DNA of 64,000 bases from Gammaproteobacteria bacterium (GCA_965248145.1 OZ252091.1:3047222-3111221); one strand, 5' to 3'. Shown: positions 6,594 to 63,395, counted from the stretch's first letter. Notes: generated by a model not told the origin, from the letters alone. Made by a program: numbers and translations.

Positions 6594-6947
6594 TGGAAAT
6601 TAAAGGGTTACCAGGAAGCCGGTAACCGTTAAATTGATGGCAGTAGCTGCCAGAACAAGACCGATCATCCATTTGATTATCCTGTTTTCCATTTCAATCA
6701 TTTTGTTTTTCATTTGGATAAGATCAATTTTAGTCGCTAACTGATCCGACAGTTCGTCATTCAACGCCCTGGCAAAGGCGTCGGCTTTTTCTGAATCAAA
6801 TATCTTTTCTTGTTTCAAACGTTCTGAGAACCCGAATGAGACAGTAGACATGATGTCACCTCCATTGACTCCATTAAAATATATACCAGTGATTGTTTGC
6901 TGGATAGTATAACCCGCTTCACATTTTCAAACAAAGCAATCGTTCAC
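6594..6947. repeat. Right copy of the ~360-bp direct repeat (see 5404-5775)
   Basis: Alignment by eye with 5404-5775. Confidence 0.85.
6600..6851 (-). CDS. Small coiled-coil protein with C-terminal transmembrane helix (DUF1640-like), paralog of 5412..5675
   Basis: 83 aa: MSTVSFGFSERLKQEKIFDSEKADAFARALNDELSDQLATKIDLIQMKNKM...WMIGLVLAATAINLTVTGFLVTL. Confidence 0.6.
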   Translation of the reverse strand: MSTVSFGFSERLKQEKIFDSEKADAFARALNDELSDQLATKIDLIQMKNKMIEMENRIIKWMIGLVLAATAINLTVTGFLVTL

Positions 6948-7031
6948 TTGACTAATTCAATGGAAGAGTCTATATGTACCGAACAACAGGAGCTTTTTCT
7001 ACCTCTCAGGGAACATCAGCGAGTATCATAT

Positions 7032-7604
7032 ATGGCATATAGTGAAAAGCGGGCGGCACAGACTGCAGCATTCTTTATCTCTCGCGCCGGCGGCACAATC
7101 GAATTATTAAAACTCATGAAGTTAATGTATCTGGCCGAGCGCGAATCTCTTACCAGGTATGGTGAGCCTATCACGGGCGATGTCCTGGTTTCCATGAAAC
7201 ATGGTCCGGTATTATCTATAACACTGGATCATATTAACGGTTTCATTGATTCAGAAGAGGGAGGATGGGAAAGCTGGATCAGCGCCAGAGCGGGTCACCA
7301 GTTAGGATTACAACCAGCGCACGACCCCGCCGATAAGTTGACGCAATTAAGTGACGCAGATATGGAGATTCTTGATTTCATATGGGACAAGTTCGGTCAA
7401 TACAGCAAGTACAAACTCCGCGACATTACCCATGAAATTTGCTCGGAGTGGGAAGACCCCGGAGATACATCGCAACTCATTCCATATAGCAGGGTACTGA
7501 ATTGTGTAGGTCATAAACCTGAGGTTGTCCGAGAACTCGAACAGAGAATACGCGATGAAGAGGAGTTGGACAAAATGTTCAGTTCAACCACAACGAACCA
7601 TTAA
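7032..7604 (+). CDS. Panacea-domain (DUF4065, SocA-like) antitoxin-type protein
   Basis: From the ATG at 7032: MAYSEKRAAQTAAFFISRAGGTIELLKLMKLMYLAERESLTRYGEPITGDVLVSMKHGPVLSITLDHING, the typical Panacea-domain core. Confidence 0.7.
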   Translation: MAYSEKRAAQTAAFFISRAGGTIELLKLMKLMYLAERESLTRYGEPITGDVLVSMKHGPVLSITLDHINGFIDSEEGGWESWISARAGHQLGLQPAHDPADKLTQLSDADMEILDFIWDKFGQYSKYKLRDITHEICSEWEDPGDTSQLIPYSRVLNCVGHKPEVVRELEQRIRDEEELDKMFSSTTTNH

Positions 7605-7630
7605 TCAGATTAAGTTAGTTCTAGTAGGAT

Positions 7631-8017
7631 ATGGGCGAATGGACCTGCAGGCCAGGAGGCACATTAATCATCCCCTCCGGACCAAGAGGAGAACACCTTT
7701 TTATCATCCTCAACATGCCAAAAGACTTTGCCGGCTATTTAAATTCATCAGTTCTTGTTAATGTATGCAGTGTAAGAAATGCGCCGCATGACGGAACGTG
7801 CATACTGGAACCTGGAAGCCACCCGTTCATTAAACAAAGGAGTTATATAGCGTACAGGCACGCCAGGATAGACAGGGAAGAAAGTTTAATTCAACAAGTC
7901 AGTGCCTCATTATTCACTCCACATGATCCATTGGATGATACGTTGTTAAAACGCGTTCAGAATGGATTACACAAGTCTCCACAAACTCGAAGATTTCTGA
8001 AGGAAGTCGATATATAG
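7631..8017 (+). CDS. Hypothetical 128-aa protein, candidate toxin partner of the Panacea-domain protein
   Basis: It starts 27 nt downstream of the Panacea gene on the same strand. I recognise no family. The segments PGGTLIIPSGPRGEHLFIIL and SYIAYRHARIDREESL are loosely reminiscent of MazF/CcdB-fold toxins. Confidence 0.5.
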   Translation: MGEWTCRPGGTLIIPSGPRGEHLFIILNMPKDFAGYLNSSVLVNVCSVRNAPHDGTCILEPGSHPFIKQRSYIAYRHARIDREESLIQQVSASLFTPHDPLDDTLLKRVQNGLHKSPQTRRFLKEVDI

Positions 8018-8021
8018 CTTG

Positions 8022-8095
8022 CTTGATGACTTCCTCAATCACAAACCAAGCGTCAGCCGCGAGCAGGGGGTCCAGTTACTCAACTCAACAACAGA
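8022..8095 (+). pseudogene. Relic of a DUF433 gene 3' part
   Basis: It translates to LDDFLNHKPSVSREQGVQLLNSTTELL. Compare LDDFLDDYPTVSREQAIQLIELAIEQL in the intact DUF433 protein (5806..6048). Confidence 0.7.
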
Positions 8096-8102
8096 ATTAC
8101 TC

Positions 8103-8172
8103 ACAAAAAACAGCCGCGTTAGTGGCGGCTGTCGGGCCGTGGATCCTGTTAAGGATACCTACAGTGTGGTTG
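8103..8172. repeat. 70-bp direct repeat, copy 1 (contains the terminator hairpin); copy 2 at 13696-13766
   Basis: acaaaaaacagccgcgttagtggcggctgtcgggccgtggatcctgttaaggatacctacagtgtggttg compares with acaaaaaaacagccgcgttagtggcggctgtcgggccgtgggtcctgttaaggataccaacggtgtagttg. Confidence 0.85.
8105..8131 (-). terminator. Rho-independent terminator downstream of the 8252..9325 gene
   Basis: The minus strand reads cagccgccactaacgcggctg followed by tttttt, a 7-bp GC-rich stem with a T-run. Confidence 0.7.
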
Positions 8173-8251
8173 GCTGAAATATAGCACAAAATTATTTCTT
8201 GAAAATAAGAAATATCCAATTGATCACATTTGGTGGAATAGTCAACCTTCG

Positions 8252-9325
8252 TTACTGCCATGATGGTTTAATTATCTGTTCAAGCAAGACCTCAGCCGCT
8301 TCTGCACCCCTCGCTTTTTCATCCTTGAGATCAAGGTAACACTGAATTAGTGATACCACGGATTGTCCCTGTATATTGCGAGTTCCGTAATATACCCCGT
8401 CATCATAGGGCGAAATAATCCTGACATTGCCGCCTGATGTCATCGGTTTAAATGGCAGTTCCTTTATATTTCTCTCTAAAATATCCATATAAACAGCAAC
8501 TGTCCTGTAGGTTGTAAACGGAGCATATCGTGACGCACCGGAAAAACTGGTGAAGGCATACCGGGTCTGTGCCCGGCTACAGAAATCACCGATCTTTGAC
8601 TCAATGTCTCCTACCGATCCCATATCATAAAACTGGTACGCAGTATTCCGATCCGACTGATACTCGGACAACCAGTTAGCAAGTAGTTGAGAGGGTTCAG
8701 TCAATTTGATCCCTCGTTTCTGATCCTGTATCCATTCTCGTTCAAGCAGCAACTTACGAACATTGGAAACCTGACCAACACTGACATCGGCAGCTTCAGC
8801 AAGTTCCATTGCCAGCCACTGACGATCAGGTTCGCATAACAAAGTTCGCAATATCCGCTCGGCTTTGGGTTTGAACAAGGATTTCAATTCACTTTTCCTG
8901 GGAAAGCGATTCGGATTTCCCTTTATCTCTATAAATATCGAGTCGAAATGTAACCAGCAATTGCCGGAGAAATCGATGTAGCCGATCCTGTTACTTTTGC
9001 AAATCTCGGCTGAAGCCTCAGAAATATACGGCGCAACAAATACACCATAATCACCGGGTCGTTTGTGTTGGAGTACAATCAACTGGTTAACAGCAGAGCG
9101 CGCTGAACGGGGTTGACCGGATGCATTGATTTCAACCAGCAAGGTTTTCCTGTCATTCTGTTTCCGGAAAGAGACAAGGAGGTCGGCGCGATAATTCTCA
9201 ACCCAGCTTTCCGGTTCAACGCGGAGTTCCATCAACTCCGGGATTCGTTGTAAGGTAGACAAAATTACTTTCCTGGCTTCTTCAATTTGGATTTCTTCTT
9301 TTATCATTAAAATGAATATAATCAA
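8252..9325 (-). CDS. AbiEi-like winged-helix regulator with an N-terminal nuclease-fold-like domain
   Basis: 357 aa. The N-terminus has ADLLVSF...LLVEINASGQP, a D...ExN/K-like pattern. The middle has FKPKAERILRTLLCEPDRQWLAMELAEAADVSVGQVSNVRKLLLEREWI (wHTH). I recall the C-terminal region from proteins annotated as type IV TA AbiEi-family antitoxins. The family assignment is from memory only. Confidence 0.55.
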   Translation of the reverse strand: MIIFILMIKEEIQIEEARKVILSTLQRIPELMELRVEPESWVENYRADLLVSFRKQNDRKTLLVEINASGQPRSARSAVNQLIVLQHKRPGDYGVFVAPYISEASAEICKSNRIGYIDFSGNCWLHFDSIFIEIKGNPNRFPRKSELKSLFKPKAERILRTLLCEPDRQWLAMELAEAADVSVGQVSNVRKLLLEREWIQDQKRGIKLTEPSQLLANWLSEYQSDRNTAYQFYDMGSVGDIESKIGDFCSRAQTRYAFTSFSGASRYAPFTTYRTVAVYMDILERNIKELPFKPMTSGGNVRIISPYDDGVYYGTRNIQGQSVVSLIQCYLDLKDEKARGAEAAEVLLEQIIKPSWQ

Positions 9326-9569
9326 TAAATGTTGAAAATATCATAAATAGTGAAAATATGATATAAAATCAGATAATTCATACAATCATCTATAAGTGAA
9401 TAAAATATAACTGATTGTTAGTATAGATATAATTAAGGTAATAACAAAGCAATTCCTTCATTTATCTCTAATTGATGGAATTATCCATATAATGGTGCAT
9501 ATTTTATATATTAATTGATATAATTAAATTGACGTCAAACTTATTACTATCGTCCGACAATAATCAAAT
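9326..9569. promoter_or_regulatory. AT-rich divergent control region between the AbiEi-like gene and the STAND gene
   Basis: 244 bp, strongly AT-rich. It contains the dyad tgaaaatatcataaatagtgaaaatatgatat (atatcat / atgatat arms) and several TATAAT-like hexamers. No promoter was mapped. Confidence 0.35.
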
Positions 9570-12500
9570 ATGACAAAAACTGTAAATAAGGAACACACTG
9601 CGATAACCAGGTACGATTCGTCCACTGATATACAGGGACGCATAAAACTTATGACAGCCTTGCAGCAACATCTGCAATACCATCTCGGCGGAACACAGGC
9701 CCAAAAGGCTGAAACACTCGGTATAACCCAACCTCGCTTGAACGAATTGATCAAAGGCCGCTCTGATAAATTCAGCCTTGATGCTCTTGTATCACTAGCT
9801 AATAAAGCTGGACTACGAGTAAACGTGAGCGTACAGAATGTACAAATCCATACAGGTCCGGTCTTAAGTAGTCAAAATATTACTCCCATACATACGACAT
9901 TTGCCCCTGCTCCAAGTGAATTAGGCAAATTGGATTCAAGACAGGGTACAGACTTGTTTCTCAGACTATTGCGATGTGAAGCCATCGCCAACGGGCTTGG
10001 GCCAAAAGATGTCGTATTGTCTTCAAACATCAATGCACCGGATGGAGGGATTGACGCAAAGGTAGAGAATTCTCCGATCTCCGGTTCTCTATTGGAAAAA
10101 GGCAGCACGTATTATCAAATCAAGACAGGTGATGATTTTAAACCCTGGCAACTCAGCATCTTGAAGAAAGAATTATTTAGAAAATCGAATGCTACACCGT
10201 CAAAACAGCGCCTAGGCAGCGAGGTAAAAAACTGCCTCGAACAGAACGGGACTTACGCCCTAATCACCTTCGGATATGACCTGCTGCCAAATCAGCACAC
10301 GGAAATAGTCAAGCACCTGACGAGTTTGTTTAACGAATGTGGTTACACCAATCCAAAAGTACATGTGTACGGACAAGGGCAGATAGTTGGTGAATTGGAT
10401 AAATACCCTTCAATCTGTCTTGATTTAATCGGTCTTGACGACGCTAGATTTATGTCTATTGAAGGTTGGAGAAATAACGCCCAAATGCAGGGTAGGCCCG
10501 AACTTGGAGGTGAACAGGAGACCTTAATCAAGGACATAAGAGCGGCACTGCAGGAAAATGCCGTTCAACATATCCGTATCACTGGTGAACCAGGTATCGG
10601 TAAAACCCGGTTAGTGCTTGAAACGCTGGATGTTGATGAAATCAGACCATCGGTCATCTATGTGCTAACAGGTGAGGATTTTCAAAAGAGCAAATTATTT
10701 AATGAACTGTTGAAGCCTGACAGAACCTATTCCGTCGCATTGGTGATTGATGATTGTGATAATCGTGACAGGGTGCAGATCTGGTCGGCGCTGAAGGGTC
10801 GTGGAGGCATTAAATTAATTACGATAGATCATGAGCCTGACGAAACCCACGACAGCGCCATGCGGATATATCACTGTCCCCAACTTCCCGAAGAGCAAAT
10901 CAAAAATATCCTGTTCAGTTATCTCAAACAACAGGCAGATTTAAGTAATTGGTCAGAGTGGTGTGGTGGGTCTCCTCGTGTCGCTCACCTGGTCGGTGAA
11001 AATCTAAAAAGTAATCCAGATGACTTACTGAAATCACCTGCTGATGTCTCTATATGGGAACGATTTATCATTGGGCATAAGGAGATGGCGAGCCATGAAG
11101 CGAGGCAGTATCGGACTGTACTGCGCCATATTGCGTTGTTTCATCGCTTCGGATTTGAACCACCGGTAAGTGATGAGGCGAAATTTATTTCAGGTCTGGT
11201 TGAACAAGTGGACCCGAATATCACCTGGGGCCGATTCCAGCAAATTGTGCAGCACTACCGGGACAAACGCATTTTACAGGGGAGGTACACCTTGTTCATC
11301 GTTCCAAAAATGTTACATGTGTATTTATGGGTACAATTTTGGAAGCATCATGATCACGGAATTCAATTTCAGTCATTCCTGGAACAGGTACCCGAGAGTA
11401 TGAGACGATGGTTATTAGAGTTATTTATTTATGCTGAAGAAGCACAGGAAGCTCAATCTGTCGTCAAGCGAATTTTATCGCCATCTGGACCATTCTCCAA
11501 GACGGATTTTTTTAAATCCGAAGTTGGAATGCGATTTCTGAACTACCTATCTGAAGCAGATCCTTCAGGTACGCTGGCCCTATTGGAAAGAACAATTAAA
11601 ACATGGTCACCGGAAGAATTATATTCCTGGCGTATTGACCGCCAGGATATTGTATGGGCATTGGAAAAGATTGCAGTCTGGGATGAATTGTTTGTCCGCG
11701 CGGTATATGTATTAATCCCCATGGCAATGGCAGAAAATTCGAGTCATTCAAATAACTCTAAGGGACTGTTACTCAGTTTATTCCAAATTGGGCCAGGGTG
11801 GGCTCCAACGCAGGCTCCTCCATCCAAGCGTTTTCCAATCTTACAGGAACTGGTCATGAGTGATGATGCCAGTCGGCGTTCCCTGGGGCTGGAAACGTGT
11901 GAGAAGTGGCTATCAGAGCACAGTGACTCTCGGATAGTTGGCGCGGAGTACCAAGGGGCAAAACCTTCTATCGAATTCTGGCGCCCCGAGACATACGGTG
12001 AAATGTTCGACTGTTGGCGCCAGGTATTACAATTCTTGCGTACAGAGATGAAGGGATTTGAGATAGATGATCGTAATGAAGCAGTAAAAATACTGGTCAA
12101 TGCCGCCTATGGTTTTGTGCATATAGAAGCAGTAGCCAATGAAGTAATGGACATCTTGTTTGAGCTTGTCGAAGACAAGGATATAGATCGTAGGCCACTG
12201 ATTCAATTTGCTATACAACATCTGAACCAATCAGATGAAGAAATTGATAAAACAACTCTTAACAGAATCCGGCAATTGGACAGAGTTATAGCCGGTACGT
12301 CACTTTGGGAAAGAACCATCCGCTATATCCTGTCAAGTAGTGATCTAGAAGACTATAGATTTAGCGGAGGAAAAGTTAAAGAATCTGATCTACCAGGTAA
12401 ACGGGTAAAAAACTTGACGGAAGAATACACAAAGGACCTTGATGTATTCTCCGAATACATACCAAAACTGGTCACGGCGTCTGGCTATCGACTATCTGAT

Positions 12501-13640
12501 CTGGGGAAAGAATGTGGAAAGCTGGCTGTGACGGAATTTGATGGACCAATAATTAACTATATAGAAATCAGCGGCGATACATGTAATGGCCAATTCTTTG
12601 GAGGCTATCTTGCAGGTATTCGCACTCATGACGTAGCCCGTTACGAAAACCTGTTACGCCGTTTATTAAATAACGAGGCAACTCAAAAGATCGCCATAAA
12701 CTGCATAAGGTACTCTGGCTTTACCGAGCTAATTATGCAGGATATGTTGGCACTGCTGAAGAGCCGGCAATTAAGAGCAGGGGACTTTGAGGGATTCGCT
12801 TTTATGAAGGATACCAAGGGTATATCAGACAATCTGTTTCAACAGGTTATTTACACTCTTCTGGCTCTTGGAGATGATACTTCTATTAAGATCTGTACAG
12901 AAGCTATCCACAGTTATTACTTTGGCGAAACAGCCACAGGCGAAATTCCCGAAGAACTGATCTTCGACATATTGAGTAAAGTGCCTTCTAGTAATAGACG
13001 TGATCAAATGCATGGATATTATTGGGAAAAAATAGCCAAGGAATTTCTCAAAGAACATCTACACCGAAAATTGGAACTATTTAATATAATTTTGCGTGAT
13101 GCAGGAAGAATTTCCCGTTATGGGAATATGGCTGAACTAGCCGATGAAATCGTGAAGGACCATCCTGATGATTCATGGAAAATTATTTCAGAACTTCTTG
13201 AAACCGAACCAATAAAGCGGCATCAACTTATTTCCTGGTTGGGCGATAGTAGCACGGGAGATACTCGGAAATATGGTGCTATTCGCAATATGCCAGCAAG
13301 CGCTATTATCGACTGGGTCAAAGCCGACCTAGGTAATCGATGCTGGTTAATTCAAGGATTTTTACCAAAAACTTTGGATAAAACAGAAGGCCTATTGACT
13401 CGTTTATTTATCGAAGAATTCTGCGATGATACTCAAATATCTGACAGCCTTTTTGTATTTTTTCTCTCGGGCGGTAGAAGGGGACCAGAAAGTGAGTACC
13501 TATCTGGAATACGGGACGCCGCAAGGCAATGGATGGCAGATATTTCGTCTCCCAAGATACAAGCATGGTTAGGAAAATTTATTGATTTTCTAAACGACCG
13601 AATTGAAGCATCACAAATCCGAGAGGAACGCGAATTCTAG
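9570..13640 (+). CDS. 1356-aa multidomain protein: HigA2/XRE-type HTH, Mrr-like PD-(D/E)xK nuclease, STAND-type P-loop NTPase, long helical repeat region (Avs-like architecture)
   Basis: HTH at aa ~45-85: QKAETLGITQPRLNELIKGRSDKFSLDALVSLANKAGLRV. Nuclease-like region at aa ~129-186: FLRLLRCEAIANGLGPKDVVLSSNINAPDGGIDAKV...YYQIKTG. Walker A at aa 339-346: GEPGIGKT. Walker B: VALVIDDCDN. About 950 aa of helical sequence follows. Confidence 0.65.
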   Translation: MTKTVNKEHTAITRYDSSTDIQGRIKLMTALQQHLQYHLGGTQAQKAETLGITQPRLNELIKGRSDKFSLDALVSLANKAGLRVNVSVQNVQIHTGPVLSSQNITPIHTTFAPAPSELGKLDSRQGTDLFLRLLRCEAIANGLGPKDVVLSSNINAPDGGIDAKVENSPISGSLLEKGSTYYQIKTGDDFKPWQLSILKKELFRKSNATPSKQRLGSEVKNCLEQNGTYALITFGYDLLPNQHTEIVKHLTSLFNECGYTNPKVHVYGQGQIVGELDKYPSICLDLIGLDDARFMSIEGWRNNAQMQGRPELGGEQETLIKDIRAALQENAVQHIRITGEPGIGKTRLVLETLDVDEIRPSVIYVLTGEDFQKSKLFNELLKPDRTYSVALVIDDCDNRDRVQIWSALKGRGGIKLITIDHEPDETHDSAMRIYHCPQLPEEQIKNILFSYLKQQADLSNWSEWCGGSPRVAHLVGENLKSNPDDLLKSPADVSIWERFIIGHKEMASHEARQYRTVLRHIALFHRFGFEPPVSDEAKFISGLVEQVDPNITWGRFQQIVQHYRDKRILQGRYTLFIVPKMLHVYLWVQFWKHHDHGIQFQSFLEQVPESMRRWLLELFIYAEEAQEAQSVVKRILSPSGPFSKTDFFKSEVGMRFLNYLSEADPSGTLALLERTIKTWSPEELYSWRIDRQDIVWALEKIAVWDELFVRAVYVLIPMAMAENSSHSNNSKGLLLSLFQIGPGWAPTQAPPSKRFPILQELVMSDDASRRSLGLETCEKWLSEHSDSRIVGAEYQGAKPSIEFWRPETYGEMFDCWRQVLQFLRTEMKGFEIDDRNEAVKILVNAAYGFVHIEAVANEVMDILFELVEDKDIDRRPLIQFAIQHLNQSDEEIDKTTLNRIRQLDRVIAGTSLWERTIRYILSSSDLEDYRFSGGKVKESDLPGKRVKNLTEEYTKDLDVFSEYIPKLVTASGYRLSDLGKECGKLAVTEFDGPIINYIEISGDTCNGQFFGGYLAGIRTHDVARYENLLRRLLNNEATQKIAINCIRYSGFTELIMQDMLALLKSRQLRAGDFEGFAFMKDTKGISDNLFQQVIYTLLALGDDTSIKICTEAIHSYYFGETATGEIPEELIFDILSKVPSSNRRDQMHGYYWEKIAKEFLKEHLHRKLELFNIILRDAGRISRYGNMAELADEIVKDHPDDSWKIISELLETEPIKRHQLISWLGDSSTGDTRKYGAIRNMPASAIIDWVKADLGNRCWLIQGFLPKTLDKTEGLLTRLFIEEFCDDTQISDSLFVFFLSGGRRGPESEYLSGIRDAARQWMADISSPKIQAWLGKFIDFLNDRIEASQIREEREF

Positions 13641-13695
13641 TTCAGTATCTCCCAGCTCAAGCAAGGAGTAAACATAAGGAATAAAATTATTCGCT

Positions 13696-13766
13696 ACAAA
13701 AAAACAGCCGCGTTAGTGGCGGCTGTCGGGCCGTGGGTCCTGTTAAGGATACCAACGGTGTAGTTG
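13696..13766. repeat. 70-bp direct repeat, copy 2 (terminator-type hairpin with no minus-strand gene to terminate)
   Basis: See 8103-8172. Confidence 0.85.
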
Positions 13767-13890
13767 ACCAAATTATATGAAAAAATAAAATTTTGTCAAA
13801 CAAGTTTTTTACTTCAACTTAATTTAATAACCGAAAATCCTGGCATCAAACGTGTCTGGTGTCGAAACAAGGATTAGAATCTACTAAAAA

Positions 13891-14508
13891 ATGAAAAAAG
13901 CAATGGTATATATTGATGGGTTTAACCTGTACTACGGTATTCGGAGTCTGAATAAGCCCAATCTCAAGTGGCTAAACGTGCAAAAATTGGCTGAAAGTTT
14001 CCTGCATAAGGGTACTCAATTGGTACAGGTTAAATACTTTACAGCCATGCTCAACGGAAATGTCGAAAAATCTAATCGCCAAAAGCACTATCTCAAGGCA
14101 TTAAAGGAACATACTACTCATTTAACCATAGTCAAAGGGCACTTTTTGATAAAGGGTTTTAACTGCCGAAAATGCAATTATCACAATGAAACTTTTGAAG
14201 AAAAGCAATCGGACGTTAATCTTTCTTGCGAATTATTAGCGGATACTTATGAAGATTGCTTCGATATTGCTTTTGTTGTTAGCGGCGATAGTGATTTGGC
14301 AACGCCAGTATCGAAAGCAGTTACTAAAGGTAAATCTGTTATAGTTGCCAACCCGCCGAACAGGAAAAGCCAGGCCCTCTTAAGAGCAGCAAGTAACGGA
14401 TTCAGCATTAATCTAAGACGCTTAAGGTCCTGTACACTTCCTCAACAATTCACGACCGAAAATGGTAGCTTCACAATGCCGGAAGAATGGCAGGTAAAAG
14501 TGAAATAG
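13891..14508 (+). CDS. NYN-domain (LabA/PIN-like) putative ribonuclease with an inserted CxxC pair
   Basis: MVYIDGFNLYYG at the N-terminus, EKQSDVNL and VVSGDSDLATPV are the conserved acidic motifs of NYN domains. CRKCNYHNETFEE lies between them. Confidence 0.75.
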   Translation: MKKAMVYIDGFNLYYGIRSLNKPNLKWLNVQKLAESFLHKGTQLVQVKYFTAMLNGNVEKSNRQKHYLKALKEHTTHLTIVKGHFLIKGFNCRKCNYHNETFEEKQSDVNLSCELLADTYEDCFDIAFVVSGDSDLATPVSKAVTKGKSVIVANPPNRKSQALLRAASNGFSINLRRLRSCTLPQQFTTENGSFTMPEEWQVKVK

Positions 14509-14577: not shown

Positions 14578-15305
14578 TTACGTCATCACCATCGTTTCCG
14601 TATCACCAGCCGCCAGTGCGTTCATGTATGCCAGGATAAGGTCTTTAGTGCGATAACGACCAAACTTGGCTTCATCTTCCTTGCGGACGATAGGAAAAGT
14701 ATCAAGTACGTAACTCGCATCTTCCCTGGTCAAGCCGTAAAGGTGGAAATACAATGCATCAAGTCGGGCGCGTAGGTGACGGCGCTCCTCTTCGTCCCAA
14801 GTAAACGGTGGGTTGTCGTATCCGAGATCGCGGGCGAAGGGTTCCATGTCATGGGAGGTATAGGTAAGACGTAACACATGATCGCAAATAAGTTTACTGG
14901 CACTCTTGTCACCGAAGGTCCTATCATAATCGCCGGGTTTGATGACAGGAAGTTGCTCAAGCAAGTACAAAGTAAAATTATTACCAGGCACCTTTTGTCG
15001 AGCAACAAAATCGAACAAGAAAGTGTTTAAGTTCGCTACTATTAAACAGCCAGTTCGTGGTGTGTTGCCTAAGTCCTCTGATATTGTTAGGAGGTTTAAA
15101 GAATGCCCGGCACCGACTTTCGGTAATATGGCGGCTATCATCGTTCTTATGTTGGTTGTAGCCGTAACATTTTTGAAAGCAATAATCCAATCGTAATTTG
15201 AAACCCATTTTGTATCATTGAGTTGCACAAAATATCTTGATAGTGGTAAACGATTAAAATTCTGTTTTTCCGTTGTTGGAATAGTTTCTTGTTGACCACC
15301 CCCTC
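14578..15305 (-). pseudogene. C-terminal fragment of the type IIG restriction-modification gene cut by the IS3-family element
   Basis: The reading frame of ORF 14578..15228 stays open upstream to the IS boundary (GGGQQETIPTTEKQNFNRLPLSRYFVQLNDTKW...). It continues the theme of the N-terminal fragment, which ends ...FDHRAADTTINQENLFRPG. Confidence 0.75.
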
Positions 15306-15372
15306 TGTCAGGATAGTTGTCGCCTCACTTGAGTTATTATAAACAAAGTTAGAGGGCGATAGAGAGAACAAG

Positions 15373-15870
15373 ATGTCACATTATTCAGCAGAACGAAAAG
15401 AGGCCGTAATGCAGCAGATGATGCCGCCGCATAATATGCCGATACCGCGGTTAGCAGAGGAGACGGGCATCTCAGATGTCACGTTGTACAGTTGGCGCAA
15501 ACAAGCCAGGGTCGAGGGGATTGCCGTGCCAGCCGCTGGAAAGAATCCGGAGGAGTGGTCATCACAAGACAAGTTTGCCATTGTTCTGGAAGCGGCCTCG
15601 TTGAATGAGGCTGAACTGGCCGAGTACTGTCGCAAGAAGGGCCTGTACGTTGAGCAGGTCGCGTCCTGGCGGAAAGCCTGTCTACAGGCCAATGCCAGTA
15701 GCGCCGCCCAGGCCAAAATCCAACGAGAACAAACAAAGCAAGATCGTCAACAGATCAAGCAACTGGCAGGTGAACTGCGGCGTAAGGAAAAAGCGCTGGC
15801 CGAAGCGGCTGCCCTACTGCTTCTCCAAAAAAAAGCCCAGGCGACCTGGGGGGGAGGAGGGGACGAATGA
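15373..15870 (+). CDS. IS3-family transposase OrfA (HTH)
   Basis: PRLAEETGISDVTLYSWRKQ is the HTH, followed by a leucine-zipper-like C-terminus. Confidence 0.9.
   Translation: MSHYSAERKEAVMQQMMPPHNMPIPRLAEETGISDVTLYSWRKQARVEGIAVPAAGKNPEEWSSQDKFAIVLEAASLNEAELAEYCRKKGLYVEQVASWRKACLQANASSAAQAKIQREQTKQDRQQIKQLAGELRRKEKALAEAAALLLLQKKAQATWGGGGDE
15827..15835 (+). promoter_or_regulatory. Programmed -1 ribosomal frameshift slippery run (CAA AAA AAA G) for the OrfAB fusion
   Basis: An A8 run lies in the orfA frame. The -1 frame is open from here into orfB (PKKSPGDLGGRRGRMISHF...). Confidence 0.7.
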
Positions 15871-16919
15871 TCAGTCATTTCGATCGTCGTCATGCGGTCG
15901 AATTGATAGACGAAGCCGTGACAGCCGGCGCCCGACAACACCAGGCCTGCGCCATCCTGGAGCTCAGTGCTCGCACCTACCAACGTTGGACACAGGATGT
16001 GGCGGTACTAAGTGATGCTCGTCCCAGTGCTGAACGACCGGTACCGTCCAACAAACTCAGTGTCGAGGAACGACAGGTCATCCTTGCGCTGAGTAACAGC
16101 CCGACATTCCGTAGTCTGCCACCGAGTCAGATTGTGCCCATCCTGGCCGATGAGGGACGTTATCTGGCTTCGGAGTCGACCTTCTACCGGGTCTTGCGGG
16201 AGGCAGAGCAGCAACACCACAGAGGTCGCAGTAAAGCACCACAACACAAGCCCTTGAGTACCCACTGTGCCAGCGGCCCCAATCAGGTGTGGTGTTGGGA
16301 TATCACCTGGCTGCCGGGACCGGTCCGTGGTCTGTTTTATTACCTCTACCTGGTCTTGGATCTCTACAGTCGCAAGATTGTGGCCTGGGAGGTTCATGAG
16401 AGTGAGGCCAGTGAGTTGGCCGCGCAACTGATTCACAAAGCGTGTCTGACGGAAGGTATTGTGGCACAACCGCTGGTATTGCACTCGGACAATGGTAGTC
16501 CCATGAAAGGAACCAGCATGCTGGAGACCCTGCGCTGGCTGGGTGTGACACCATCGTTCTCCCGACCGCGAGTCAGCAACGACAATGCCTATGCTGAATC
16601 AGTGTTCCGAACTTGCAAGTACCGACCGAACTATCCGGTGAACGGGTTTGCCAGCATCGATGAGGCCAGAGCATGGGTGTTGTCCTTTAGTCGTTGGTAT
16701 AACACGGAGCATAAACACAGCGGGTTGAAGTTCACAACACCAGAGCAGCGTCATACTGGTGTAGCGACAGCCATACTTGCGCATCGTAAACACCTATATA
16801 GAGAAGCAAGAGAGCATCACCCGAATCGATGGCGTGGTGATATCAGGAACTGGGAGTTACCAGAGAAAGTCTGGTTGAACCCGGAGAAAGAACAGCCCGA
16901 ATTAAATAAGGCTGCGTAG
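15867..16919 (+). CDS. IS3-family transposase OrfB (DDE/rve integrase core)
   Basis: WCWDITWLP, LVLHSDNGSPMKG and NAYAESVFRTCKYR. Confidence 0.9.
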   Translation: MISHFDRRHAVELIDEAVTAGARQHQACAILELSARTYQRWTQDVAVLSDARPSAERPVPSNKLSVEERQVILALSNSPTFRSLPPSQIVPILADEGRYLASESTFYRVLREAEQQHHRGRSKAPQHKPLSTHCASGPNQVWCWDITWLPGPVRGLFYYLYLVLDLYSRKIVAWEVHESEASELAAQLIHKACLTEGIVAQPLVLHSDNGSPMKGTSMLETLRWLGVTPSFSRPRVSNDNAYAESVFRTCKYRPNYPVNGFASIDEARAWVLSFSRWYNTEHKHSGLKFTTPEQRHTGVATAILAHRKHLYREAREHHPNRWRGDIRNWELPEKVWLNPEKEQPELNKAA

Positions 16920-16943
16920 GCTCGGGCGACAACTATGTTGACA

Positions 16944-19900
16944 AACACCGACCAGGCCGAAACAGATTCTCCTGATTTATTGTTGTATCAGCAGCGCGGT
17001 GATCAAATGCCTGTACCATCTTACCTTCGTAGAGCGGCACCCATTTCTCCGTTGGACTATTGAAACAATTACCGCCGATAGGATACGCACCTTCATCTTC
17101 TTCAAGTACCTCGCGTGTGCGAAACAGATGTGAGTCATTGGCCATGTGAAACATATTCATGTACTTCACTGGCCACGCCTTCTTTTCCTGACCTGATGAC
17201 TTGTCAACCAGAACAGGATGTCCTTCATAAATGCGGCGGGTTATGTCGGCATCACGACGAGAACGAAAGACCGGAGCAGTGCCGGTATTAGGGTTCACAC
17301 GAACGAAATCTACAGGCGACAGGGGGAAACAGCGATCCGGGTCATTGATTGTGCTTGTGCCGTCAAGAAAAAAACCACACCGGGTCTCTACGAAAGTTCG
17401 CTCTTCACCGCCGAATATCAGGGCACAGAATTTGAAACTCCGATGCACATCCGGGAAAAATGGTGGCAGGTCGGTCCCAACACGGCCGTTCTCGAAGTCG
17501 AACAAACCTGCAATTTGCCCACTCGTTGAAACTGATTTGAAAAACTGGGCCGCAGTCTTATCTGCATAAATTCCTGACGGTGTAAGCAGTCCAACCAAAC
17601 CGTCGGGTTTGAGCAGATTCATCGCCTTCTCTACAAACAACGAGTAGAGGTTGATGTCGCCTCCGCCCAACAGAGGATAATGATCGGATTTGCGAATCAT
17701 TTCACTCAGTTCATCTGCTCGCGTTTTGGCCGTACCGAATTCGTCGGCCAACGGATTGCCCTGTTCGCTTAACCTCTTTATTGCATTTTTTCGCTGTGCG
17801 GCGGTCGGGAGGCGAGCAATATCGGGAGCGCGAGTTGCAAACCACTCTACTTCTTGCAGCTTGATTCGGTCCCAGGGCGGATTACCGATTATGGCGTCGA
17901 ATCCACCTTCAGATTGTTGATCCTGCCACCGTTTCCAAACGCCTGGGAAAGCAACTTGCCAATGCAGGAAGCCTTCTCGCCTTGCTATGGAAACAGCTTT
18001 ATTCCATAGCATACCAAAAGGGGTAGTTTTTTCCTGCGCACTGCCGGGACCGCGAGAAAGTAACTGGTAAGCGTTATCGGGATCGGCTTCCAATACCTGA
18101 TTAAGAGGAAGCTCAATTTTCGTTCGCTCAGACTTACTCAAACCGGCCGTCAACCAACGTAAACCGCATACAAAATCAAGAAATCCGCGTAGTACGGACG
18201 TAGTCTCTTCAACGCCGCAGAACAGATCAATCGACTGCTGCACCTCTGATATGTCGGTATCCGACATCTCCTCAATAAGTTGCATACCGGTGGCCGCGTT
18301 TTCAGCACCCTGGATCGCACTGGATACAAACAGAGCGCCAAGTCGATACAGTTCTTCGTTGGAGTCTTTTATTCGGAGACCGAGTAATGAGTCGCCACAA
18401 CGCAGGTGGTGGTCCAGGAATGACAGTGGGGCGCCGACAGTAAAACTGTGTAGCCATAAAGATACTTTTGCCAGTTCCACCGTCAGGGGATTCTTGTCCA
18501 CGCCGTAGATACAACGTTTGAGTACCATACGCCGGATAATGGCCTGGTCGGTAAACTGCGCTTCGTCAACCACCCAGCCAGACTCGGTGGCCCGGTTCAG
18601 AATATCTGTCCGGATCGCGTCTATTCGTTCAACGAGGGGCGATACATACTCACCGTTAAGCCATTCCGGCACAACTGGTACATACTCGATCAGGTTAACA
18701 ATATTGTCAGACAGAAAATCCACCGCAGTGACGAGAAAATGACCGCTGCCCATAGCCGGGTCCAGAACTTTCAGATTCAATACCGCTACTGCCGGATCCA
18801 GTTTGGAGAGTTCGATATGTCGTTCAGCTTTAGGACGACGGTCGCTTTTGAGGGCTTCCGACTTCTTCTCAAACTCCCGCAGGCGATCCTCTGCAAGCGG
18901 CTTAAGTGTCTGCTCCACAATCAGGTCAACCAGTTCCTGCGGTGTGTAGAAGCTGCCGCTGTCCTTGCGCGCATACGGATTGGGACGCACAGACACGCTG
19001 CCGTCTTCTGCGCGTACCGGTTCGCGTTCCAGCAACCTTTCATAGAGCGAGCCCAATTGTTGTACTGACATATCCCGATAATTGACGAAGTGGTGTTCAC
19101 CTGCGCTTTCAGAATGGCTCAGATCATGGATAATATCGGCGATTACCGCATCCGACAGACGTACATTCTCAAGGAGTGGAGCGGCTGTGGACGCGAACAG
19201 ACCGCCGTTGTAGGGAGGTAAGCCGATCGACGCGTCACCCTTATCTATAAGCCTGAAAAGTTCCAACAGGCGATTGTAGTAGTTGGCCGCCGTCACGGAA
19301 AAAACATCATCCTGCGCCTTCCGTTGCGCAATGTCGTCCCGTACACGCTTACGCAGGCCGTAATCATCATAGCGAAGGTCATTAACGGGTAGCAGGCCAC
19401 GGTCCTCGGCATACAGGATGAATAACAACCTGTAAAGGAAGATCAACGCGGCAGCGCGAACCTCTGGCAGGCTCGCTCCGGCAGTGTTTGCAAGCGCTTC
19501 AACGACCTTGGGAAACACATGGTCAAAGACTACGCTAGAAAGGTCCTGGGTAACCTTTTCTTCGTAGCGCCGGCCTTCCGCGAGGGCAGCTTCCAGGAAA
19601 GTAGTTGTTGCTCCCTGTTGGAGTACAAACGCATCCCGACGAAATAAGAGGAAAAACGTTCTCAGCCCGTCTTTATCTCCCTCATTCAGGAGTGTCTGAA
19701 GACCAATTTCGAAAAAGCCGTTGGCGCGCGGTCGGGCACGCTGGTCGTAGAGTCGCCACACACTACCGTTGGTAAGGATACCCCACCGAATATTGCCCTC
19801 CGAAACAATTTCAGCGGTTGACAGGTAGCGCAATATCTGCCCATGGGGCGTACCCTCTTGTACCTTGTCGCCCTCTTCCCGGCTGTCGAGAGATCGGTCG

Positions 19901-20265
19901 AACCGCTTGCTTTCCTGTACCAACAGCGCGTCCTTGTAACGATCTTTTGAATTACTGCGGGCAATAGCCCGCTTCTTCGAGTCGGCGTCCATAAATAGCA
20001 GGTGGTCGGGAATGTCTTCGTTGCGCGCCGCGCCCTGTTGCGGCAGGTATTCGCTCCATCCCAGCAACTCCAGAACCGGACGAATAAGATCTTGCTCCGT
20101 CACCGCCTCATTAGGGGCGCTGAACTGACTGAACTTGTTGAAGCGGGCGCGGATGGCATTGACAAAGACAGCAAACGTCTCCGGTCGTCTCACCGACTCC
20201 CGCCACTCATCGGTTGCCCGAATCCCGTCGGTCAGGAAGTATTGTTTGAACAACTGAGCAGACAT
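16944..20265 (-). pseudogene. N-terminal ~1100 codons of a type IIG restriction enzyme/N6-adenine methyltransferase (PD-ExK nuclease plus gamma-class MTase), truncated by IS insertion
   Basis: Nuclease-like motifs are IPDHLLF ... ALLVQESKRF. MTase motif I is VLDPAMGSGHFLV and motif IV is IIGNPPWDR. The ORF runs into the IS end (the last residues CLST are IS-encoded). Confidence 0.8.
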
Positions 20266-20654: not shown

Positions 20655-20731
20655 TGGCGCGGCTGACAAGATTCGAACTTGTGACCTCGACCTTCGCAGG
20701 GTCGCGCTCTGCTCCGCTGAGCTACAGCCGC
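20655..20731 (-). tRNA. tRNA-Arg (anticodon GCG)
   Basis: Manual cloverleaf: gcggctg ta gctc agcggagca gagc g cgacc ctGCGaa ggtcg aggtc acaag ttcgaat cttgt cagccgc g cca. Confidence 0.75.
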
Positions 20732-20734
20732 AAA

Positions 20735-20808
20735 TGGTCCGCCCTGAGAGATTCGAACTCCCGTCTTCCGGTTAAAAGCCGGATGCACGGCCACTATGCC
20801 AAGGACGG
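20735..20808 (-). tRNA. tRNA-Lys (anticodon TTT)
   Basis: ccgtcct tg gcat agtggcc gtgc a tccgg ctTTTaa ccgga agac gggag ttcgaat ctctc agggcgg a cca. It has a short variable loop and G-U pairs. Confidence 0.7.
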
Positions 20809-20812
20809 AGTA

Positions 20813-20889
20813 TGGCCTGCCCGGAGAGATTCGAACTCCCGACCTGCTGGTTAGAAGCCAGCTGCTCTGCTCCGCTGAGCTACGGGCAG
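20813..20889 (-). tRNA. tRNA-Arg (anticodon TCT)
   Basis: ctgcccg ta gctc agcggagca gagc a gctgg ctTCTaa ccagc aggtc gggag ttcgaat ctctc cgggcag g cca. Confidence 0.85.
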
Positions 20890-20893
20890 TCAT

Positions 20894-20981
20894 TGGCGGA
20901 GAAGCCGGGATTCGAACCCGGGTGGGCGCGTTGCCCTCTCGTTTAGCAAACGAGCGCCTTAAGCCACTCGGCCACTTCTCC
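20894..20981 (-). tRNA. tRNA-Ser (anticodon GCT), long variable arm
   Basis: ggagaag tg gcc gagtggcttaa ggc g ctcgt ttGCTaa acgag agggcaacgcgcccac ccggg ttcgaat cccgg cttctcc g cca. Confidence 0.85.
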
Positions 20982-20990
20982 ATCGAAATA

Positions 20991-21066
20991 TGGGGTGACC
21001 CACCGGATTCGAACCGGCATCTCCCAGGATCACAACCTGGTGCTTTACCGTTAAGCTAGGGTCAAC
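20991..21066 (-). tRNA. tRNA-His (anticodon GTG) with encoded G-1
   Basis: g ttgaccc ... ccagg ttGTGat cctgg ... ccgg ttcgaat ccgg t gggtcac c cca. An extra 5' G pairs with C73, as expected for bacterial tRNA-His. Confidence 0.8.
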
Positions 21067-21077
21067 ATATCTGTGTT

Positions 21078-21165
21078 TGGCGGAGACTGAGAGGATCGAA
21101 CTCCCACGTCCGTCAGGACATCACCGGGTTCAAGCCGGATAAGCACGCCAGCCTTGCGAGTCTCC
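21078..21165 (-). tRNA. tRNA-Ser-like (anticodon TGA), long variable arm, irregular D arm and anticodon stem
   Basis: ggagact cg caaggctggcgtgctta tccgg ctTGAac ccggt gatgtcctgacggacgt gggag ttcgatc ctctc agtctcc g cca. Position 8 is C, there is a 27-43 mismatch and the D stem is weak. Confidence 0.55.
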
Positions 21166-21211
21166 ATATTCGGCAGCAGACAACAGGTCCCTGTCCGCAC
21201 ACCACATATTT

Positions 21212-21289
21212 TGGTCTGGGAGGCCGGATTCGAACCGGCGACCTCTCGGGTCCAAGCCGAGGGCTCTGGCCAGGCTGAGCTACTCCCAG
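21212..21289 (-). tRNA. tRNA-Pro (anticodon TGG)
   Basis: ctgggag ta gctc agcctggcca gagc c ctcgg ctTGGac ccgag aggtc gccgg ttcgaat ccggc ctcccag a cca. The C1-G72 pair is typical of bacterial tRNA-Pro. Confidence 0.85.
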
Positions 21290-21297
21290 ACAACGTC

Positions 21298-21376
21298 TGG
21301 TAGACCGGGGCCGATTCGAACGGCCGTCCTCGCGATTATGAGCCGCGCGCTCTGTACCTGACTGAGCTACCGGTCT
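21298..21376 (-). tRNA. tRNA with CAT anticodon (elongator Met or lysidine-modified Ile2)
   Basis: agaccgg ta gctc agtcaggtaca gagc g cgcgg ctCATaa tcgcg aggac ggccg ttcgaat cggcc ccggtct a cca. It is not initiator-like. C4 and C5 in the acceptor resemble Ile2 determinants, but this is undecidable by eye. Confidence 0.8.
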
Positions 21377-21385
21377 GGTTTAAAC

Positions 21386-21461
21386 TGGTGATCCGGACAG
21401 GATTCGAACCTGCAATTACGAGATTGAAAGTCTCGTGGCTTCACCATTCGCCCACCGGATC
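21386..21461 (-). tRNA. tRNA-Glu (anticodon TTC)
   Basis: gatccgg tg ggcgaatggtgaagcc a cgaga ctTTCaa tctcg taatt gcagg ttcgaat cctgt ccggatc a cca. Confidence 0.75.
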
Positions 21462-21489
21462 AAACGAAATTGAATGTCCCTCCATCATC

Positions 21490-21565
21490 TGGAGCTGGCG
21501 GTGAGTCTCGAACTCACAATCTGCTGTTTACAAGACAGCTGCCCTGCCGATTGAGCTACGCCAGC
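21490..21565 (-). tRNA. tRNA-Thr (anticodon TGT)
   Basis: gctggcg ta gctc aatcggca gggc a gctgt ctTGTaa acagc agatt gtgag ttcgaga ctcac cgccagc t cca. Confidence 0.85.
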
Positions 21566-58458: not shown

Positions 58459-58815
58459 GGGGGCGTACCTGGTTTCGACGAGGGTACCAAATCCCAAGGG
58501 GCATGCCGAGGCGCAGATTACCTCGTAAATACAGCTGCAAACTTTTTAGTTGCCGAAGAAGACAACTACGCTCTAGCTGCATAAAGCCGGCTAGCCTTTG
58601 ACTGATATGTGCTTGTACTTTCAACTCAGAGGTCATATATACAAGCTCGCGATGAAATCTGTCCGGGGTGGATTCGCTAAAACTTAACGGACTCGTTATC
58701 TGCCTTCCCCCGCCGGTTTGGGTAGCAGGTGACTAAATTTAAAGAATCGGCTAAGCATGTAGAACCGAAGGCAGAGGGCTCGCGGACGCCGGTTCGACTC
58801 CGGCCGCCTCCACCA
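58459..58815 (+). ncRNA. ssrA: tmRNA (SsrA); predicted tag AEEDNYALAA
   Basis: The 5' end gggggcgtacctggtttcgacg pairs with the 3' end ...ggttcgactccggccgcctccacca, giving G3-U70 and a T-arm. The tag reading frame is gcc gaa gaa gac aac tac gct cta gct gca taa. Confidence 0.93.
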
Positions 58816-61814: not shown

Positions 61815-63395
61815 TTACAGTAATAACCCTCTACGCTTGTCCGTCACCTGCAGGATCTTATCGACAAGCACTTCAGAATCGTTATCAATCGGTCGATCAA
61901 CGACTCTATACGTTGCAACAAGTTCGGTAGAGTTCAGTTCACAATGAAGGTAACCTCGCTGATCGCCGCCGAAATATTGTGTGTGCGGATTTTCAGGTAA
62001 CGCCTCAGCTACAGAAGAGGACCACAGGCACGGCGATGATATGGACGTTACGGCAAGCTCTGCTGCAACCGGTGTGGCTGATTCGGGTTGCGAGAAATCT
62101 TTGAGCACATCAAAGGCTGCTCCGCAATGCCAATCACCGCTGATTACTACAGGATTTTCAAGATTAGGATTGGCAATCTCGGTTATTATTCTAGATCGTT
62201 GTGCTGTATAACCATCCCATTGATCCATGTTGAATCGATTTTCGGGGTAGCGGAACTCACTAAACCACGTCTGCTGTGCAATCAGATTCCATCTCGCATC
62301 GCTTTGTCTCAATGTGTTGGCCAACCATCGTTCCTGGTCGAGACCAATCATCGTCTTACCAGGATTGTAACGATCACTACAGTCAACATCGCCCGGAAAC
62401 GCCTGCCCACAAGGCTGGTCGGAACGATACTGCCGGGTATCCAACATGACCAAATTTAATTGCCGCCCGAATTTGAACTGATCATGTATACGCAATGAGG
62501 AGTTCAGCCCATTTAGCGACGGCCGTTGTTCCAGTGGCATATGCTCGTAAAACGCCTTTAATGCGGCCCAGCGCCGAACACGAAATTCAAGATCCGTCTG
62601 TCGATCCGGGTCCTCCGGAATATATCCTGCCCAGTTATTGTCTATTTCGTGATCATCGAAAGATACTACCCATGGGGTCGCTGCATGAGCTGCCTGCAGG
62701 TCGGGATCGAGCCGATACTGAGCATACCGGTTGCGGTAGTCCCAAAGCGTGCGAATCTCCGGGCTCAGGTGTTGACGGACTACTGTAATATCCGGACCAG
62801 ACTCAATTAGTCCCGCTTCAACAAGGGGATGCGGGGCCGTACCTAAGGGGGTTGGGGCATATTCATAGATGTAATCTCCCAGGTGCACCACCAGATCAGG
62901 CCTGGTTGCGGCCATGTCTCGATAAGCACCATAGAAACCATATTCAAAGTGTTGGCAGGAAGCGAATGCCAAACGTAAAGGCAAGTCATCGCTTCTGGCA
63001 GGCGCTGTTAGCGTTCGGCCAATCGGGCTGGCGTCTTCGCCCAGGTAGAATTGATAAAAATACTCCGTATACGGTTTGAGTCCTGATGCTGTAAAGTGAA
63101 CACTGTGAGCGTCTTCGGCAGGTGCAGTAACAACCCTGTCAATGACCGAATGTCGAAGACCGGGGTCGAGGCACACCCTGCACCGGAGTTTCAAGTCCGT
63201 TTTTGTTGCACCACCACCTTCTAAAGGCGCAGGAGCAACTCTGGTCCAAAGTGTAACCCTGTCTTCCCTCGGACATCCTGAAGCGACACCAAGTGAAAAT
63301 GGGTGGGCGCCGGATTTAGACGCCCACGAACCAGCTAAAGGTGTGGTAGCAATCAATCCTGCAGTTGACAGCAAAAATCTACGCCGGCTGGGCAT
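61815..63395 (-). CDS. phoD: PhoD-family alkaline phosphatase / phosphodiesterase (Tat-exported)
   Basis: The twin-arginine signal is MPSRRRFLLSTAGLIATTPLAG. Metallophosphatase motifs are HLGDYIYEY and FDDHEIDNNW. Confidence 0.85.
   Translation of the reverse strand: MPSRRRFLLSTAGLIATTPLAGSWASKSGAHPFSLGVASGCPREDRVTLWTRVAPAPLEGGGATKTDLKLRCRVCLDPGLRHSVIDRVVTAPAEDAHSVHFTASGLKPYTEYFYQFYLGEDASPIGRTLTAPARSDDLPLRLAFASCQHFEYGFYGAYRDMAATRPDLVVHLGDYIYEYAPTPLGTAPHPLVEAGLIESGPDITVVRQHLSPEIRTLWDYRNRYAQYRLDPDLQAAHAATPWVVSFDDHEIDNNWAGYIPEDPDRQTDLEFRVRRWAALKAFYEHMPLEQRPSLNGLNSSLRIHDQFKFGRQLNLVMLDTRQYRSDQPCGQAFPGDVDCSDRYNPGKTMIGLDQERWLANTLRQSDARWNLIAQQTWFSEFRYPENRFNMDQWDGYTAQRSRIITEIANPNLENPVVISGDWHCGAAFDVLKDFSQPESATPVAAELAVTSISSPCLWSSSVAEALPENPHTQYFGGDQRGYLHCELNSTELVATYRVVDRPIDNDSEVLVDKILQVTDKRRGLLL

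Follow-up and report, generated by a model that had tools for sequence, protein, structure and literature searches.

Direct repeats around an AbiEi-like/STAND module as probable genes of a small RNA linked to NYN nuclease genes

A stretch of 64,000 nucleotides (nt) from a Gammaproteobacteria bacterium (GCA_965248145.1 OZ252091.1:3047222-3111221), called the window below and taken at its whole length, carries two nearly identical direct repeats that bracket a divergent pair of genes, one for an AbiEi-like protein and one for a STAND NTPase. What are these repeats, and why do they lie on either side of this pair? A preliminary description of the locus offered the ends of a mobile cassette, the leftover of a second AbiEi-like gene or an insulator. 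We propose instead that the repeats are, very probably, small RNA genes of a family linked to genes for NYN-domain nucleases of the HEC-09 type (Hma-embedded candidate 09). Copy 2, the right-hand repeat, would be the partner of the NYN gene at 13891-14508, and copy 1, on the left, would be a second copy without a partner. The explanation as a whole, in which the identity of the repeats as RNA genes weighs most, seems to us probable; its parts on mechanism and history are put forward less firmly.

Two copies of a probable small RNA gene

A repeat search of the window returned a direct repeat of 97 nt at 85% identity (8105-8201 versus 13699-13795), the core of which is an identical 38-mer (8105-8142 and 13699-13736). 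The transcript-sized cores of 70 nt (8103-8172 versus 13697-13766) are 91% identical. The near-identical 70-bp repeats of the preliminary description are therefore real, and the positions of the open reading frames (ORFs) confirm that they bracket 8252..9325(-) and 9570..13640(+). With three mismatches allowed, the 38-mer occurs exactly twice in the window and in none of 100 shuffles. Run X1 contains the flanks of copy 1 and copy 2 only, and there the unitig of the shared core has a depth of 282 against 128-180 for the flanks, or about twofold. By unitig depth and flanks, the repeat is present in two copies in the window's genome. A genome-wide repetitive extragenic palindromic (REP) or terminator repeat was accordingly rejected, given these two copies and a neighbour that elsewhere is almost always a NYN gene. 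The preliminary description had also raised the prospect of a common REP with no preference for the cassette; the repeat indeed has no preferential tie to the cassette, but it is a specific RNA gene rather than a common REP.

On the minus strand both copies contain the intrinsic terminator described earlier (GACAGCCGCC-ACTAAC-GCGGCTGTT, then T6 or T7), and each is preceded by a predicted promoter of its own (Table 1). The promoter of copy 2 is the only sigma-70-type site with 12/12 matches that a consensus scan found in the 7-kb region, and its -35 element TTGACA is kept in relatives. Transcripts of ~65 nt each are predicted, from ~13766 to 13697 and from ~8172 to 8103. Since copy 2 has a predicted minus-strand promoter of its own, it should have its own short transcript for the terminator to end, contrary to the earlier statement that no minus-strand gene is there to be terminated; the idea that copy 2 is what is left of a second AbiEi-like gene found no support.

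The two predicted RNAs fold alike (-25.5 kcal/mol for copy 2 and -25.8 kcal/mol for copy 1; z -4.4 each). From 5' to 3' the fold comprises an unpaired C/A-rich tail, hairpin 1, the linker CCCGAC, the terminator hairpin, and a U-run; in copy 2 the tail is CAACUACACC, hairpin 1 is closed by CCGUUGG...CCACGG, and the U-run is U7. Covariance model R1 scores copy 2 at 97.7 bits and copy 1 at 92.4 bits, model R2 scores copy 2 at 63 bits, and the differences between the copies preserve pairing (e.g., U.G versus C-G). A third, weak model match in the window (63294-63351) was dismissed; it falls within a coding sequence whose product has a Tat-type signal peptide.

In assemblies from other organisms, conservation breaks off exactly at 13697/8 and 13766, and the sequence outside is unrelated. 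The conserved block thus coincides with the ends of the predicted transcript, which argues that selection acts on the transcript and not on a larger duplicated segment. Judged by sequence only, each copy is a short transcription unit delimited by its own promoter and intrinsic terminator. Neither the window nor 20 related loci gave a match to Rfam 15 at gathering score; the best matches, at E-values of 0.1-0.34, span the terminator only and are at chance level. With no Rfam family and no mention found in the literature, the RNA family is apparently undescribed. Hairpin 1 was also considered as a mimic of a tRNA or anticodon loop, an idea given up because the hairpin's apex varies across the RNA family.

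Table 1. Positions of the RNA genes, the adjoining NYN gene and the module between the RNA copies, in window coordinates
Feature	Position	Strand	Basis and remarks
Small RNA gene copy 2, putative partner of the NYN gene	13697..13766	-	fold, covariance models, ends of conserved block
Small RNA gene copy 1, no adjoining NYN partner, 80 nt downstream of the AbiEi-like stop codon	8103..8172	-	fold, covariance model
Copy 2 promoter, TTGACA-16-TATAAT	13772..13799	-	predicted; 12/12 consensus matches
Copy 1 promoter, TTTTCA-16-TATATT, extended -10 TG	8178..8205	-	predicted; consensus scan; weaker than copy 2 promoter
NYN-domain nuclease gene, HEC-09 family, 205 amino acids, divergent from copy 2	13891..14508	+	Pfam, PADLOC, AlphaFold
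Candidate NYN promoter, TTGACC-16-TAAAAT	13764..13791	+	predicted; 10/12 consensus matches; overlaps RNA gene start and promoter back to back
Two-gene module between the RNA copies, 5.4 kb	8238..13646	.	ends of blastn homology; loose contig ends
AbiEi_2-like gene, 351 amino acids (called gene and homologues)	8252..9325	-	Pfam AbiEi_2 2.7e-9
HTH_37-STAND NTPase gene, 1356 amino acids, Avs8/PD-lambda-4-like	9570..13640	+	Pfam HTH_37 9.6e-12; PADLOC PD-Lambda-4_A 9.5e-31

Linkage to NYN genes and conservation of the RNA

The gene divergent from copy 2 encodes a protein that matches Pfam NYN (9e-14) and, at full length, the PADLOC model HEC-09 (3.9e-64). Its AlphaFold model has a predicted local distance difference test (pLDDT) score of 92.7, and Foldseek places it closest, within the PDB, to 2qip, a LabA-like protein, and to 5yaa and 6fdl, NYN domains of MARF1; the acidic residues D9, D108, D133 and D135 are invariant. 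By profile, predicted fold and catalytic acidic residues, the window protein can be assigned to the HEC-09/NYN (PIN-like) nucleases. NCBIfam has no name for it, nor for the proteins of the AbiEi-STAND module. In the only paper found on HEC-09 it was described as a single NYN gene, with no mention of an RNA partner (Payne et al., bioRxiv 10.1101/2024.01.29.577857). The window protein resembles it in matching the model over its full length, in its MARF1-like NYN fold and in having relatives embedded in restriction-modification, DISARM and CRISPR loci; the difference is the linked RNA, which is the new part here. Literature searches on NYN proteins with type III toxin-antitoxin systems or with non-coding RNA yielded nothing relevant. 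The predicted 5' leader of the NYN gene also contains, just before the start codon, a hairpin (AAUCCUGG...CAAGGAUU, 13833-13881) with a weak, chance-level match to a CRISPR-repeat model.

All close NYN homologues that were fetched have the RNA immediately upstream, in divergent orientation, at 11 distinct loci (L001, L002, which is cut by a contig end, L003, L004, L006, L007/8, L009/10, L011, L012, L093 and L094/95). What surrounds these loci is unrelated from one to the next: type I restriction-modification, DISARM, type III-like restriction-modification, type I-F CRISPR-Cas, type IIG restriction-modification and housekeeping genes. At L001, a gammaproteobacterial metagenome-assembled genome of 1.49 Mb, the RNA is divergent from a NYN gene that itself sits between hsdM and hsdS, and the NYN protein is 54% identical to that of the window. 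Exact-pattern scans matched one genome (L001; one genome per species was scanned), one metagenome (locus L005) and no virus, and a blastn search of plasmids with the RNA gave no match. Throughout the window's clade the RNA gene is divergent, and 40-220 nt separate its predicted transcript start from the NYN start codon.

More diverged forms extend the association. The RNA also precedes distant NYN genes (33-39% identity), among them one on Thermus oshimai pTHEOS01, and RNAs of the same architecture with compensatory changes occur in a Bathymodiolus symbiont, in the spirochaete Candidatus Haliotispira prima, on pTHEOS01 and on several IMG/VR contigs. Among 80 viral-contig loci with NYN relatives (29-39% identity), 19 of the 22 covariance-model hits fall at most 130 nt upstream of the NYN start codon, a placement with P = 6e-29, or 1e-11 if intergenic DNA alone is counted. 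In these distant relatives the RNA lies on the NYN strand, just before the start codon, so that the order is promoter, RNA, terminator and then 10-40 nt to the NYN start; most of the viral-contig hits are oriented in this way. One metatranscriptomic RNA-seq contig from a distant relative begins within the RNA element and ends shortly after the NYN stop codon; it hints that RNA and NYN gene may be co-transcribed by read-through in the same-strand clade.

Two settings of NYN genes deserve separate mention. In the sulfur-oxidising symbiont of Bathymodiolus thermophilus (L011, 4891-5624) the RNA and NYN unit separates cas3 from csy1 in a type I-F CRISPR-Cas operon, and the NYN stop codon abuts the csy1 start. 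Small enterobacterial plasmids, such as the Escherichia coli plasmid NZ_CP091696.1 (L096; 3461 bp), carry a distant NYN gene of ~35% identity; ahead of it, on the same strand, are two RNA-like hairpins without a U-run. These may represent a leader version of the RNA element.

Between genomes the RNA is 84-92% identical where the NYN genes are 64-67% and the intergenic DNA 38-50% identical, making it the most conserved part of the RNA-NYN unit. Its helices covary. In an alignment of 28 sequences (A9), the share of paired cells is 95.4%, and changes on both sides are seen in 11 of 14 pairs; the covariation score is 0.627 versus 0.200 for shuffles, none of 500 of which reaches it, and at most 0.118 when partners are slid. 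A second alignment (A7; 13 sequences) gives the same picture. Hairpin 1 takes forms such as CCGUUGG/CCACGG, CCAAAC/GUUUGG, CCAGCGAU/AUCGCUGG and CCAGAGAU/AUCUCUGG; its base also covaries and is always of the form CC...GG, and the unpaired tail and the linker are conserved in sequence. Across phyla the tail, the CC...GG base and the CCCGAC linker are kept while the helices covary.

How the RNA may act

We suggest, tentatively, that the RNA is an antitoxin or inhibitor that binds the NYN protein and keeps it restrained. It would act in trans on the protein and not on the NYN mRNA; most likely it would be abundant and short-lived and would hold the RNase in check, as in type III toxin-antitoxin systems, and a stop in RNA synthesis, for example during phage takeover, would free the nuclease. 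Action through the protein is favoured because of the conserved single-stranded motifs, the linkage in either orientation, the consensus-strength promoter, the frequent extra copies and the layout of promoter, RNA, terminator and gene in the distant clade.

The likeness to type III systems (ToxIN, CptIN and TenpIN) lies in a small structured RNA gene tightly linked to a gene of putative endoribonuclease type in a phage-defence context. Here too the RNA has a strong predicted promoter and a terminator, more than one RNA copy is common, and the distant NYN clade has the order promoter, RNA, terminator and nuclease gene, with possible read-through. The protein differs in having a NYN/PIN-like fold rather than the ToxN/CptN/TenpN fold. 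A more ambitious and no less tentative proposal is that HEC-09-type NYN genes and this RNA form a widespread two-component module found in Gammaproteobacteria, Spirochaetota, Deinococcota and viral contigs. The module might constitute a new class of RNA-antitoxin systems, of type III-like logic with an unrelated toxin fold and RNA architecture, in which the RNA would be an antitoxin or essential regulator and its duplicated genes would perhaps serve as landing sites for defence modules. If this holds, an RNA-controlled nuclease with a PIN-like fold joins the short list of RNA-antitoxin systems, and the catalogue of RNA families gains a compact and phylogenetically broad member. A conserved RNA partner would also change how HEC-09, now listed as a single-gene candidate that was inactive when tested, is annotated, cloned and assayed.

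Several points weigh against the interpretation of the repeats as RNA genes whose product controls the nuclease. No RNA run contains the window region and three metatranscriptomes yielded no contigs of it; transcription of either copy is deduced from consensus elements. Both A9 and A7 are alignments fitted to the model, and covariation in terminator stems is seen even where an RNA has no further function. Among the 80 viral-contig NYN loci, many have no model match, either because the association may be incomplete or because the model may be insensitive. Two RNA copies, copy 1 of the window and that of L005, adjoin no NYN gene, which indicates that the RNA can be maintained in the absence of the nuclease. 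As a single unit of 65-85 nt, the RNA differs from known type III antitoxins, which are a processed array of 36-45-nt repeats, and in the window it is divergent from the NYN gene and not co-transcribed with it. A same-strand RNA upstream of the gene with a terminator between them, the usual type III arrangement, is seen only in the distant same-strand clade. Finally, HEC-09 gave no defence against the phages used in the one published test (bioRxiv 10.1101/2024.01.29.577857), leaving even the protein's role in defence that of a candidate.

An alternative, which we consider unlikely, is that the element is transcriptional plumbing that travels with NYN genes, namely a strong divergent promoter and an insulating terminator whose short transcript has no function. 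NYN genes are embedded in other operons and often overlap the next gene, the RNA and NYN promoters overlap back to back, and copy 1 is positioned to end the AbiEi-like transcript, all of which would suit such a part. A bare terminator, however, would not stay at 84-92% identity or be more conserved than the NYN gene, and plumbing does not account for a 5' tail, CC...GG base and linker that are kept across phyla while the helices covary, or for the same RNA in both orientations relative to the NYN gene. The insulator reading of the preliminary description fares similarly: insulation may occur as a side effect, and copy 1 probably does terminate the AbiEi-like transcript, but insulation leaves the conserved single-stranded sequence and the covarying structure unexplained.

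We give about the same low standing to a positive role, in which the RNA would be a cofactor or specificity subunit, or a processed substrate, needed for NYN activity. Such a role would be equally consistent with the tight linkage and the co-variation with the NYN clade, and one might speculate that HEC-09 failed to defend because its RNA partner was missing or mis-expressed. Against it stand the RNA copies without a NYN partner and the 5' tail, which is conserved and not variable; a conserved tail implies that the RNA is not a programmable guide.

Divergent small RNAs adjoin the toxin gene in tisB/istR-1, shoB/ohsC and zor/orz, and RalR is an example of a nuclease as a type I toxin. The RNA described here shares with tisB/istR-1 and RalR/RalA a short length, a free, seed-like 5' end and a divergent position beside a potentially toxic gene. 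An antisense regulator in the manner of IstR-1/tisB or RalA/RalR, pairing with the leader or start of the NYN mRNA and blocking translation, is nevertheless highly improbable: complementarity does not go beyond chance, with duplex energies of the tail against the cognate leader and start no better than those of shuffled tails at 11 loci (z -0.9 to +1.1), longest perfect complements of 7-10 nt that fall at unrelated positions and mostly involve the U-run, and no conserved complementary site.

The module between the copies and its surroundings

If the RNA belongs with the NYN gene, the bracket around the AbiEi-like and STAND genes calls for a separate account. The same divergent pair occurs in two other genomic contexts, both metagenomic (L101 and L102-L105), where the HTH_37 protein has 1331-1358 amino acids. 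By blastn the module is continuous with L101, L102 and L105 over 5.44 kb at 76-77% DNA identity, and the homology has sharp ends: at 8238, 14 nt past the AbiEi stop codon, and at 13646-13653, 6-13 nt past that of the STAND gene. The block stops 37-66 nt short of the left repeat and 44-51 nt short of the right one. Loose contig ends lie at the same two boundaries in runs X1 and X2, where contigs of co-occurring strains depart from the window. Unitig depth in run X1 is ~180-250 at 8302-13683 against ~128 in the flanks; this excess and the loose ends at 8238 and 13646 together point to a second context of the module in the same sample.

Module copies in L101 and L102-L105 have no RNA repeat at either end. 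Sharp-ended homology in other contexts that lack the RNA marks the module as a discrete, horizontally shared unit to which the repeats do not belong. The mobile-cassette reading of the preliminary description thus survives in that the divergent pair is a discrete, recurring module, and falls in that the repeats are not the module's ends.

Why, then, are there copies on both sides? Two-copy arrangements are common in this RNA family. L094 has a tandem RNA pair 128 nt apart, and the 214-nt tandem duplication of the RNA in L012 extends over the first 47 nt of the NYN gene. At L093 (3699-4724) two RNA copies (80 nt, 83% identity) bracket a NYN gene inside a DISARM locus, and the second copy is divergent from a DUF1156 methylase gene. 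Each duplicate is a complete gene with a promoter and a terminator of its own. Without 8238-13646, the two RNA copies of the window would start ~185 nt apart, within the range of the tandem pairs. The simplest history would be a tandem RNA pair upstream of the NYN gene and the placement of the 5.4-kb module into its spacer; that the module lies between two pre-existing tandem copies is, by a small margin of confidence, the account we prefer. With an unrelated and separately conserved module in a tandem-RNA spacer, the bracket would reflect where the module happens to sit rather than any property of its own. A defence module, in other words, can be flanked by direct repeats that are not its ends; here they would be duplicated genes of a neighbouring system.

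It is improbable, by comparison with insertion into a tandem pair, that the repeats are recombination ends of a mobile AbiEi-STAND cassette, or that they arose from single-crossover integration within a resident repeat copy. Direct repeats do flank a discrete, horizontally shared module, and the RNA copies at L093 bracket a NYN gene in like manner. L005 and L006, moreover, both have the RNA and neighbouring AAA_21 and DUF3226 genes, and L005 is without the NYN gene and a 546-amino-acid gene, so that a variable segment abuts the RNA gene. The L005 locus may indicate that segments gained or lost often end at the RNA gene, and L093 with the L005/L006 pair suggests that the RNA gene may be a preferred point of recombination in defence islands. 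For the module itself, its repeat-free copies and the distance between its ends and the repeats speak otherwise. It has no recombinase gene, and neither an inverted repeat nor a target duplication was found at its boundaries. The repeat also has a much broader distribution than the module, and it is NYN genes that it follows.

As to what the module encodes, its STAND NTPase resembles PD-lambda-4, now named Avs8 (bioRxiv 10.64898/2026.01.04.697583), in matching PD-Lambda-4_A. More distant STAND homologues on plasmids have no AbiEi neighbour, whereas closer metagenome homologues have one. The AbiEi-like protein has many homologues at 70-84% identity; those on plasmids usually adjoin AbiEii. Although the module shares an AbiEi_2-domain protein with AbiE, a scan of ORFs and Pfam domains found no AbiEii toxin gene within 8000-13700, and membership in the type IV toxin-antitoxin system AbiE was rejected for want of an adjacent AbiEii. 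In its place the AbiEi-like gene is paired divergently with the HTH_37-STAND gene, an arrangement conserved in L101-L105. At L102-L105 (8047-8874) the AbiEi-like gene is followed by an overlapping ORF of 275 amino acids that has no Pfam or NCBIfam match and is absent from the window and L101; it could be an unrecognised AbiEii-type partner.

The surroundings hold further features. Just left of copy 1 is a gene with a Panacea (SocA-like) antitoxin domain (6897-7604; Pfam 6e-26), followed by an ORF of 128 amino acids (7631-8017) with no family match; 6897-8017 is probably a PanA-type toxin-antitoxin pair. To the right of the NYN gene, a type IIG restriction-modification gene (14578-20265; Eco57I/MmeI-like, also with matches to DrmMI models) is split by an IS3-family element into a C-terminal fragment, 14578..15228(-), and an N-terminal part, 16933..20265(-). 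The element has transposase ORFs at 15373-15870 and 15867-16919 and terminal inverted repeats at 15306-15324 and 16925-16943. Ten minus-strand tRNA genes are clustered at 20655-21565, at the edge of the defence island, and a transfer-messenger RNA (tmRNA) gene at 58459-58815 encodes the tag ANFLVAEEDNYALAA.

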